The notes beneath the pieces were generated by a model. That model made no database searches. It had not been told where the DNA came from and saw only the letters and a list, made by a program, of their open reading frames with translations. Positions 7,690 through 8,396 of a stretch of DNA of 27,200 nt are shown here, piece by piece. Source of the stretch: Candidatus Bathyarchaeota archaeon (GTDB lineage: Archaea > Thermoproteota > Bathyarchaeia > Bathyarchaeales > Bathyarchaeaceae); NCBI GenBank assembly GCA_037386505.1, contig JARRMA010000016.1, positions 1 to 27,200 of the forward strand. Reading direction: 5' to 3'. A program made the translations under genes and the position numbers. Positions within the stretch are counted from its first letter, which is position 1; each line of letters begins with the position of its first letter.

Positions 7690-8396
7690 TCATAACTTAA
7701 AACCATGCTTGCCAATTAAAGGTACAAACGCAACTCCACCTAAGTTTTCCTCAATGAATTTTTCACCCTTTTTCCTTATTCTAAGTAATGTTTGATAAAA
7801 TTGAATACTCCCAACAGGAAGAAGAAGTATTCCGTCTTCTTTTAATTGTTGAAGAAGCGGTTTTGGAACTTCTGGACCTGCCGCTGCAACTAGAATTCGA
7901 TCATAAGGTGCTTCTTCAGCATAACCTAATGTTCCATCACAATGAATTACTGTAATCCGATTTCCATATCCAGCTTTTTCAATATTGTATTTAGCAAACG
8001 AAGCTAATTCTGATATTCGTTCTAAAGTGTATACGTGTCCCCATTTTTCCTTCGGTAAATCAGAAGGAGCAACTATCTCTGCTATAGTAGAAGCATGCCA
8101 TCCTGAACCACCACCAACTTCTAGTACTTTATGTCCAACTTCTAGTTGCAGGGCTTCATCCATTATTGATACCATGTTTCGCCCAATTGACCGCAATCGT
8201 GTCAACTGAGAGGCGCGGAAGCTGTTTGCCCTGAACCTATTTGGAGTGGACAATCAGTTGCAGCATGAACTTTTATATTCTCAGGAAGAAATTTTTCCCT
8301 AGGAACTTTACGCATAGCGGTAATAACTTGTGGTGATTTTAGAATTCCACTACCTATGAGATTTTGAATTAAATCTTCCCACTTTTGTTCACTCAA
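7690..8396 (-). CDS. pcm: Protein-L-isoaspartate O-methyltransferase, split into exon 1 (8396-8210) and exon 2 (8177-7690); 224 aa after splicing
   Basis: Exon 1 encodes VPREKFLP...[13 protein letters not shown]. Exon 2 encodes [32 protein letters not shown] and LGGVAFVPLIG. Joining gives 187+488=675 nt, in frame, and restores SAPHMV. Confidence 0.92.
8178..8209 (-). other. Putative 32-nt bulge-helix-bulge (tRNA-type) intron in pcm mRNA
   Basis: mRNA: CGCC UC|U CAGUUGAC acgauugcg GUCAAUUG GGCG AA|A C. 4-bp central helix CGCC/GGCG, two 3-nt bulges and an 8-bp intron stem. Cuts after the second nucleotide of each bulge restore CCU CAC AUG (P-H-M). Confidence 0.85.

Follow-up and report, generated by a model that had tools for sequence, protein, structure and literature searches.

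A probable tRNA-type intron within the coding sequence of pcm, a protein-repair gene of Bathyarchaeia

Marck and Grosjean reportedly described the canonical hBHBh′ motif of archaeal pre-tRNA introns in 2003. Under the bulge–helix–bulge (BHB) rule derived from pre-tRNA 37/38 introns, each bulge is cut 3′ of its second base. In eukaryotes, splicing of the XBP1/HAC1 mRNA by IRE1/RtcB is regulated by stress, with ligation by RtcB in animals. XBP1/HAC1 splicing is named in PMC13149111. For archaeal mRNAs, splicing has been shown experimentally for the BHB intron of the cbf5 pre-mRNA of Crenarchaeota (Watanabe 2002; Yoshinari 2006; Yokobori 2009, PMC2738675), whose motif is reported as relaxed (PMC2738675), and the HVO_1309 mRNA of Haloferax volcanii carries a BHB intron in its 5′ UTR (Schwarz 2020, PMC7714728; PMC10485636). 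The 2020 paper and a 2023 review list these two, one in a coding sequence and one in a 5′ UTR, as the known mRNA cases (PMC7714728, PMC10485636); the review expects further archaeal mRNA introns (PMC10485636), and the 2009 paper treats introns in other genes as predictions only (PMC2738675). In the literature searched, cbf5 is the sole archaeal coding sequence shown to need splicing. The same searches, which left subscription journals mostly uncovered so that an earlier report is possible, returned no paper describing a pcm intron and none on a cbf5 intron in Bathyarchaeia.

Here we analyze a 27,200-nucleotide stretch of DNA (the window) from a Bathyarchaeia metagenome-assembled genome (MAG; 2.04 Mb, 337 contigs, 73% complete) that likely derives from a salt-marsh metagenome run. 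On its minus strand, pcm, encoding protein-L-isoaspartate methyltransferase (PIMT, PF01135), is parted into two exons by a 32-nt insert. The insert is a real feature. Comparative analysis makes it very likely that this segment, 8209–8178, is a functional tRNA-type intron within the pcm coding sequence that would be removed by the splicing endonuclease EndA and the ligase RtcB.

Like the cbf5 intron, the pcm insert is short (tens of nucleotides), lies in coding sequence and has a relaxed BHB motif. It likewise splits a codon after base 1 within one of the protein's most conserved motifs, comes in both in-frame and out-of-frame lengths, shows lineage-specific precise loss, and occurs in a host with an EndA catalytic subunit of crenarchaeal type. 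Whereas cbf5 encodes an RNA pseudouridine synthase in Crenarchaeota and its splicing is an experimental result, pcm encodes a protein-repair methyltransferase in Bathyarchaeia and its splicing is predicted from comparative evidence. With hBHBh′ pre-tRNA introns the insert shares a 4-bp central helix, two 3-nt bulges, a predicted cut after the second bulge base, the EndA/RtcB enzymes and a similar size; it differs in lying in an mRNA, in having a central helix whose 5′ strand codes for protein, and in an outer helix h (the anticodon stem of a pre-tRNA) reduced to one G:C pair. As for HVO_1309, the predicted substrate of the archaeal splicing endonuclease is an mRNA, but the pcm insert lies inside the reading frame, whereas that of HVO_1309 lies in an untranslated leader, in a euryarchaeon with an α2-type enzyme. 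The splicing predicted for pcm also resembles that of XBP1/HAC1 as a spliceosome-independent, enzymatic removal of a short, frame-changing intron, although XBP1/HAC1 splicing involves IRE1, twin stem-loops and regulation by stress and pcm has an EndA BHB motif. The pcm intron very probably represents a second gene family of the cbf5-type class.

The interrupted pcm gene and its RNA fold

Exon 1 (8210–8396, minus strand) begins with a TTG start at 8396 and was delimited from the ORF translation and a match to positions 3–60 of the Pfam PCMT profile. Its 3′ end encodes ...GQTASAP, closing with the Ala and Pro codons, and is followed by C8210, the first base of a His codon. The predicted excised BHB intron RNA of 32 nt (8178–8209, minus strand) was assigned from its sequence, its fold, same-site relatives and covariation. 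Exon 2 (7690–8177, minus strand) opens with the remaining AC of the His codon (A8177), continues with ATG GTA, ends in a stop codon at 7692–7690, and was assigned from its match to PCMT positions 61–208 and to NCBIfam PIMT equivalogs. The two Pfam pieces abut exactly (47.8 bits for the N-terminal and 136.6 bits for the C-terminal piece), and the NCBIfam PIMT equivalogs match both pieces, identifying the gene as PIMT (TIGR00080 family). This interrupted gene is the sole strong PCMT locus found in the genome.

Because the insert's length is not divisible by three and a TGA lies within it (8202–8204, minus strand), the unspliced ORF (8202–8396) stops after 64 aa. The original prediction had placed a 32-nt, frame-shifting, stop-containing insert within the QTxSAP-H-MV motif, and all of its coordinates and base pairs hold. 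It had also pointed to the base composition of the insert, which is 50% GC (16 of 32) in an AT-rich genome averaging 33.7%.

The minimum-free-energy fold of 8232–8160 consists of a CGCC/GGCG helix, a 5′ UCU bulge, an 8-bp stem and a 9-nt loop, and agrees with the BHB first drawn for this site (the same helix and stem, with UCU and AAA bulges). The 5′ strand of the central helix, H (CGCC, 8212–8215, minus strand), is exonic, being made of bases 2–3 of the Ala codon and bases 1–2 of the Pro codon, and is paired in 100% of 52 distinct sequences from relatives. The 3′ strand, H′ (GGCG, 8180–8183, minus strand), is intronic and is supported by fold and covariation. The 5′ bulge, UCU (8209–8211, minus strand), contains the predicted cut 8210/8209, and its middle C is invariant in the 52 sequences; the 3′ bulge, AAA (8177–8179, minus strand), contains the predicted cut 8178/8177 and reads AAA, AGA or ACA among relatives, with an invariant A at the third base. 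Fold and covariation also define the inner helix h′ and its loop (8184–8208, minus strand), in which 8208–8201 pairs with 8191–8184 (seven Watson–Crick pairs and one GU) around loop 8200–8192. The outer helix had been described as weak, and we find only the single pair G8216:C8176, which is GC in 51 of the 52 sequences and GU in the remaining one; the next pair in line forms only where the Ser wobble base is T.

The site therefore has the 4-bp helix and two opposite-strand 3-nt bulges of a BHB, a geometry shared by 52/52 distinct relatives, and lacks the outer helix h of at least 2 bp beside the 3′ bulge that strict canonical hBHBh′ introns possess. Because the outer exon–exon helix is almost absent, the motif is of the relaxed (HBh′-like) kind; with an outer helix of one G:C pair, the 3′ splice site lies outside a closed bulge. 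An Rfam search of 7900–8500 gave zero matches. Since the single sequence has an unexceptional fold energy (z = −0.97) and a loose BHB descriptor matches this AT-rich genome at hundreds of sites by chance, the significance of the structure is carried by the exact restoration of the conserved protein motif and by covariation in relatives.

Joining the exons at 8210/8209 and 8178/8177 gives GCG CCT C|AC ATG, that is, A-P-H-M (...SAP-H-MVSIM...), in an ORF of 675 nt (187 nt from exon 1 and 488 nt from exon 2, including the stop) and 224 aa. The cut sites of the original prediction lead to this same product, and the pcm sequence of an intronless species of the same genus is identical over the predicted junction. 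After conceptual splicing the frame is open over 224 codons or more at 55 of 60 loci; the other five give shorter products, of 108–195 aa, assumed to be cut by contig ends. Of 5.8 billion proteins searched, no full-length one exceeded 91% identity to any of the products of conceptual splicing. The spliced junction of the window's species or subclade did not turn up when metagenome contigs were scanned for its exact pattern. A search for RNA runs containing the locus yielded just two runs, of unrecorded library kind, with parts of it; their contigs stop short of the pcm junction, with no spliced joint among them.

In the mechanism that we propose, four exon bases, CGCC, would pair in the pre-mRNA with four intron bases, GGCG, and the 8-bp intron hairpin would stack on this central helix, so that the two splice sites would fall in 3-nt bulges on opposite strands. 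EndA would then cleave after base 2 of either bulge, and RtcB would ligate the exons and so restore the His codon C|AC and the 224-aa protein-L-isoaspartate methyltransferase. We infer that the pcm mRNA is cleaved, ligated and, once spliced, translated.

Same-codon inserts in relatives and the alternatives to splicing

We surveyed 40 relatives from the genus and order together with 70 loci from named genomes. Most of the Bathyarchaeia surveyed have an insert at the same pcm codon, and about 18 Bathyarchaeia loci (some of them one species reached via both searches) do not. No insert was present in any sampled pcm from outside the Bathyarchaeia, which comprised Nitrososphaerota, an Asgard archaeon, Acidilobaceae and Methanobacteriaceae. 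From the Bathyarchaeia, 52 distinct same-site inserts of 29–33 nt were extracted. A class-wide sample added ten more loci, all with the insert, from families f34, f20, f9 and f10; in six f34/f20 loci the insert is about 21–60 nt long. The length of the pcm intron differs by family between f20 (L124, L125, L129) and f34 (L122, L127, L128), the extremes being mini-introns of ~21 nt with 4–5 bp stems and forms of ~45–60 nt with extended, GC-rich stems, while the central helix and bulges are constant across these length variants.

Inserts at the same codon and stem covariation had been proposed as the things to look for, and both are found. In a MAFFT alignment of the 52 inserts, in which gaps are confined to the loop, 96.3% of cells show standard pairing, versus 84.3% (sd 0.7) when the 3′ partners are shuffled, and pairing falls to 20–36% when the partners are slid by 1–3 columns. 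Changes on both sides occur in 9 of 13 pairs, and compensatory cells number 102, where shuffling gives a mean of 30. On four of five measures the observed value was not reached in any of 500 shuffles, and 8/500 reached the observed number of pairs with both-side changes; these counts overstate significance because the sequences are related, a kinship on which neither the slid controls nor the many independent pair types depend. All eight pairs of the inner stem covary, each with at least three standard pair types and with 94% of cells paired. The second pair of the central helix is G-C in 49 of the sequences, G-U in two and A-U in one, and a compensatory CACC/GGTG double change is present in one of the loci (L017) as well as in two loci of other families (L129 and L131).

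Further constraints are evident in the coding sequence. Every in-frame insert contains a stop (21/21), and the remaining 31 inserts shift the frame. The split His codon is invariant, with C before the insert and A followed by C/T after it. The original prediction had noted that GC-rich exon codons supply the helix; Ala is encoded by GCG in 51/52 intron-bearing pcm genes versus 10/25 intronless ones, which are related and not independent sequences, and the single intron-bearing gene with GCA has a compensating change in its intron. The Pro wobble base, which is bulge base 1, is A/T in 52/52 intron-bearing genes versus 15/25 intronless ones, again among kin that are not independent. The exon strand of the helix places a constraint on these synonymous Ala and Pro sites.

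We built a maximum-likelihood PIMT protein tree (a gene tree from a quick search, with SH-aLRT support only). The intron-bearing sequences make up one large Bathyarchaeia group, comprising the window's order and families f20 and f34, and intronless, single-chain pcm sequences are nested inside it. Parsimony requires 8 intron changes, compared with a shuffled mean of 16.4, and the well-supported branches force at least 5. Intact pcm occurs in many other Bathyarchaeia families. The simplest reading would be one gain of the intron in a Bathyarchaeia subclade followed by several precise losses, the number of which is approximate because this gene tree has many weak inner branches. A history of one gain and several precise losses has likewise been proposed for the cbf5 intron.

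One alternative is that pcm is a split gene, in which separate 64-aa N-terminal and 161-aa C-terminal pieces assemble noncovalently and the hairpin serves translation or termination. An ATG at 8175, the Met of the HM motif, stands directly behind the insert, and public gene callers repeatedly annotate precisely the 161-aa product that would result. This arrangement would leave unexplained the 4-bp helix with its two 3-nt bulges, the compensatory changes between exon and intron, and the GCG and Pro-wobble constraints. The invariant C and A-C/T rebuild His only upon joining of the RNA, the N-terminal piece would carry variable junk tails, and in the intronless relatives that nest within this clade the enzyme is a single chain. 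We consider a split gene improbable.

Translational recoding, in which the ribosome hops over the hairpin or shifts frame to make the full-length protein from unspliced mRNA, appears less probable still and would be quite surprising. A stable hairpin and a stop codon by the take-off region characterize the bypass of phage T4 gene 60, and the pcm hairpin, with its stop just past the take-off region, recalls this layout. To our knowledge, ribosomal bypass has no archaeal precedent. Early crenarchaeal cases of cbf5 were themselves once taken for frameshifts (PMC2738675). Against recoding, matching take-off and landing codons are absent, the insert lengths vary over about 21–60 nt and are both in-frame and out-of-frame, and the conserved features are those of an EndA substrate and not those of a bypass signal.

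Third-position differences amount to 53% in exon 1 and 54% in exon 2, mean pairwise amino-acid identity is 62% for either exon, and no in-frame stop occurs in exon 1 among 57 species. Purifying selection is equal on both pcm exons. The insert had also been proposed for checking in DNA reads, where it is present: one contig of DNA run X1, possibly the window's own source sample, covers 8150–8500 with zero differences, and in a second run a strain ~94% identical covers 7970–8260 gap-free. Complete genomes in a single contig and one single-cell amplified genome (L048) have the insert too, which excludes an assembly artefact. The view that it is a disabling insertion or a metagenome-bin misassembly, suggested by the truncated unspliced reading and by a 73%-complete MAG in 337 contigs, is effectively refuted by the more than 50 species that carry the insert, including those complete and single-cell genomes, by its presence in a related strain from the second public run (the run with exact cover possibly being the window's source), by the covariation among relatives, and by equal purifying selection with stop-free first exons in 57 species. 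Run X1 also contains, with a loose end at 8195, a contig of another Bathyarchaeia species with the pcm intron variant TGGTTGAC..., which is seen in loci L021 and L054 as well. The presence of this second species' contig indicates that several intron-bearing species cohabit the X1 sample.

Splicing enzymes and the cbf5 intron of the same genome

Splicing of pcm as an EndA/RtcB intron calls for both enzymes, and the host genome encodes both. The EndA gene (C206:3121–3675, plus strand; PF01974, 5.8e-29) has as its best PDB matches 2cv8, 3p1z_B and 3ajv_B, the catalytic alpha subunits of crenarchaeal (alpha-beta)2 enzymes. A phmmer search of the MAG with EndA did not find a second subunit; a second paralogue is represented here by a contig-end fragment (C227:2–70, plus strand; 100% identity). 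Four relatives (loci L114–L121), two of them single-contig assemblies, each encode two EndA paralogues of ~190–200 aa, of which the second is nearest to 1a79 and 5x89, the enzymes of M. jannaschii and M. kandleri. By eye, both paralogues seem to retain His and Lys at catalytic-looking positions. The presence of two paralogues is compatible with a heteromeric enzyme, as judged from these sequences. Heteromeric EndA is reported to cut relaxed motifs (PMC5829648; PMC2738675). A broad-specificity heteromeric EndA would handle the relaxed pcm motif, and the pcm mRNA is expected to be a substrate of the EndA of this lineage.

The RNA-splicing ligase gene, rtcB (10031–11575, minus strand; PF01139, E = 2e-173), whose product acts in trans, lies 1.8 kb from the intron-bearing pcm. 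Among five relatives queried, this adjacency is seen in G003 and is absent in G006, G085 and G048, and RtcB was not matched in G024. We read the proximity of rtcB and pcm as a coincidence because only one of the five relatives has it. Of the 33 tRNA genes called by ARAGORN, eight have predicted introns, and some of these predictions may be spurious.

A second candidate mRNA intron is present in the same genome. Its cbf5 gene (locus L111; C214, plus strand, exon 1 at 1172–1427 and exon 2 at 1449–2218) contains a 21-nt in-frame insert with a TAA (1428–1448), within GHGGTL-D-PKVTG. In its fold the central helix is CCCT/GGGG, the two bulges read TGA and AAA, and the inner stem is 3 bp long; the same cutting rule gives CTT G|AT CCC, or L-D-P. 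Yokobori et al. placed the crenarchaeal cbf5 intron between bases 1 and 2 of the catalytic Asp codon (PMC2738675), and the boundary in Bathyarchaeia matches this published position exactly. Of the 57 Bathyarchaeia genomes in which a class-wide sample matched cbf5, most have the gene interrupted at the Asp codon, and the central helix there has compensatory variants (CCTT/GAGG and CTCT/AGAG). Because the insert sits at the published site, Bathyarchaeia carry the intron that has been experimentally spliced elsewhere.

We screened the genome for further introns of this type with structural descriptors and no homology filter, so these counts are bounded by the structural assumptions and further introns could be missed. 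A strict descriptor (inner stem of at least 6 bp) returned 14,306 sites, 431 of which join open frames. Nearly all were rejected as AT-rich chance matches or adjacent operon genes, and only pcm stood out; candidates on C95, C243 and C311 were among those set aside as adjacent operon genes or chance. From their junction peptides, those on C95 and C243 are presumably carA/carB and ABC-transporter pairs. A relaxed descriptor (at least three GC pairs in H and an inner stem of at least 3 bp) recovers both pcm and cbf5. Candidates on C171, C57 and C88 did not survive inspection: either the upstream "exon" does not resemble protein sequence or the gene simply runs on in frame.

Consequences for annotation and archaeal mRNA splicing

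The reading of the insert as a functional mRNA intron, advanced in the original prediction, is supported by same-site inserts, covariation and identity of the junction with intronless relatives. More than 50 covarying examples and several precise losses would turn a curiosity into a class that is open to study. The pcm introns may provide a naturally varied set of relaxed BHB substrates for work on EndA specificity and offer a dated history of gain and loss. The cbf5 insert, at an unchanged codon position, widens the range of that intron beyond Crenarchaeota to include Bathyarchaeia, which bears on the age of archaeal mRNA introns.

We also considered whether EndA/RtcB splicing is an obligatory and possibly regulated step for several housekeeping proteins of Bathyarchaeia, at least pcm and cbf5. 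At present this is a speculative idea that we regard as unlikely. Were it true, protein-repair capacity would be tied to the RNA-processing state of the cell, since unspliced pcm mRNA gives a 64-aa fragment, and the system would be a prokaryotic counterpart of XBP1/HAC1-type unconventional splicing control.

Annotation pipelines systematically mis-call intron-bearing pcm genes. The expectation that this gene would be annotated wrongly was correct, although the form of the error differs from the one foreseen: the gene is called as a 161-aa truncated protein, corresponding to the 3′ exon, and not as a pseudogene. Public databases hold many PIMT entries of 161 or 157 aa that start at the Met of the HM motif, that is, 3′ exons mis-called as complete proteins, and the many 161-aa "truncated" entries are part of this pattern.

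The genes on either side of pcm were also inspected. Between pcm and rtcB, a 499-aa ORF (8525–10024, plus strand) encodes a fusion of a metallo-beta-lactamase-fold domain (PF00753) with an 8-oxoguanine DNA glycosylase (OGG_N + HhH-GPD), and FEN1 (6640–7686) flanks pcm on the other side. With the OGG fusion and FEN1 as its neighbors, pcm sits in a repair-gene cluster.
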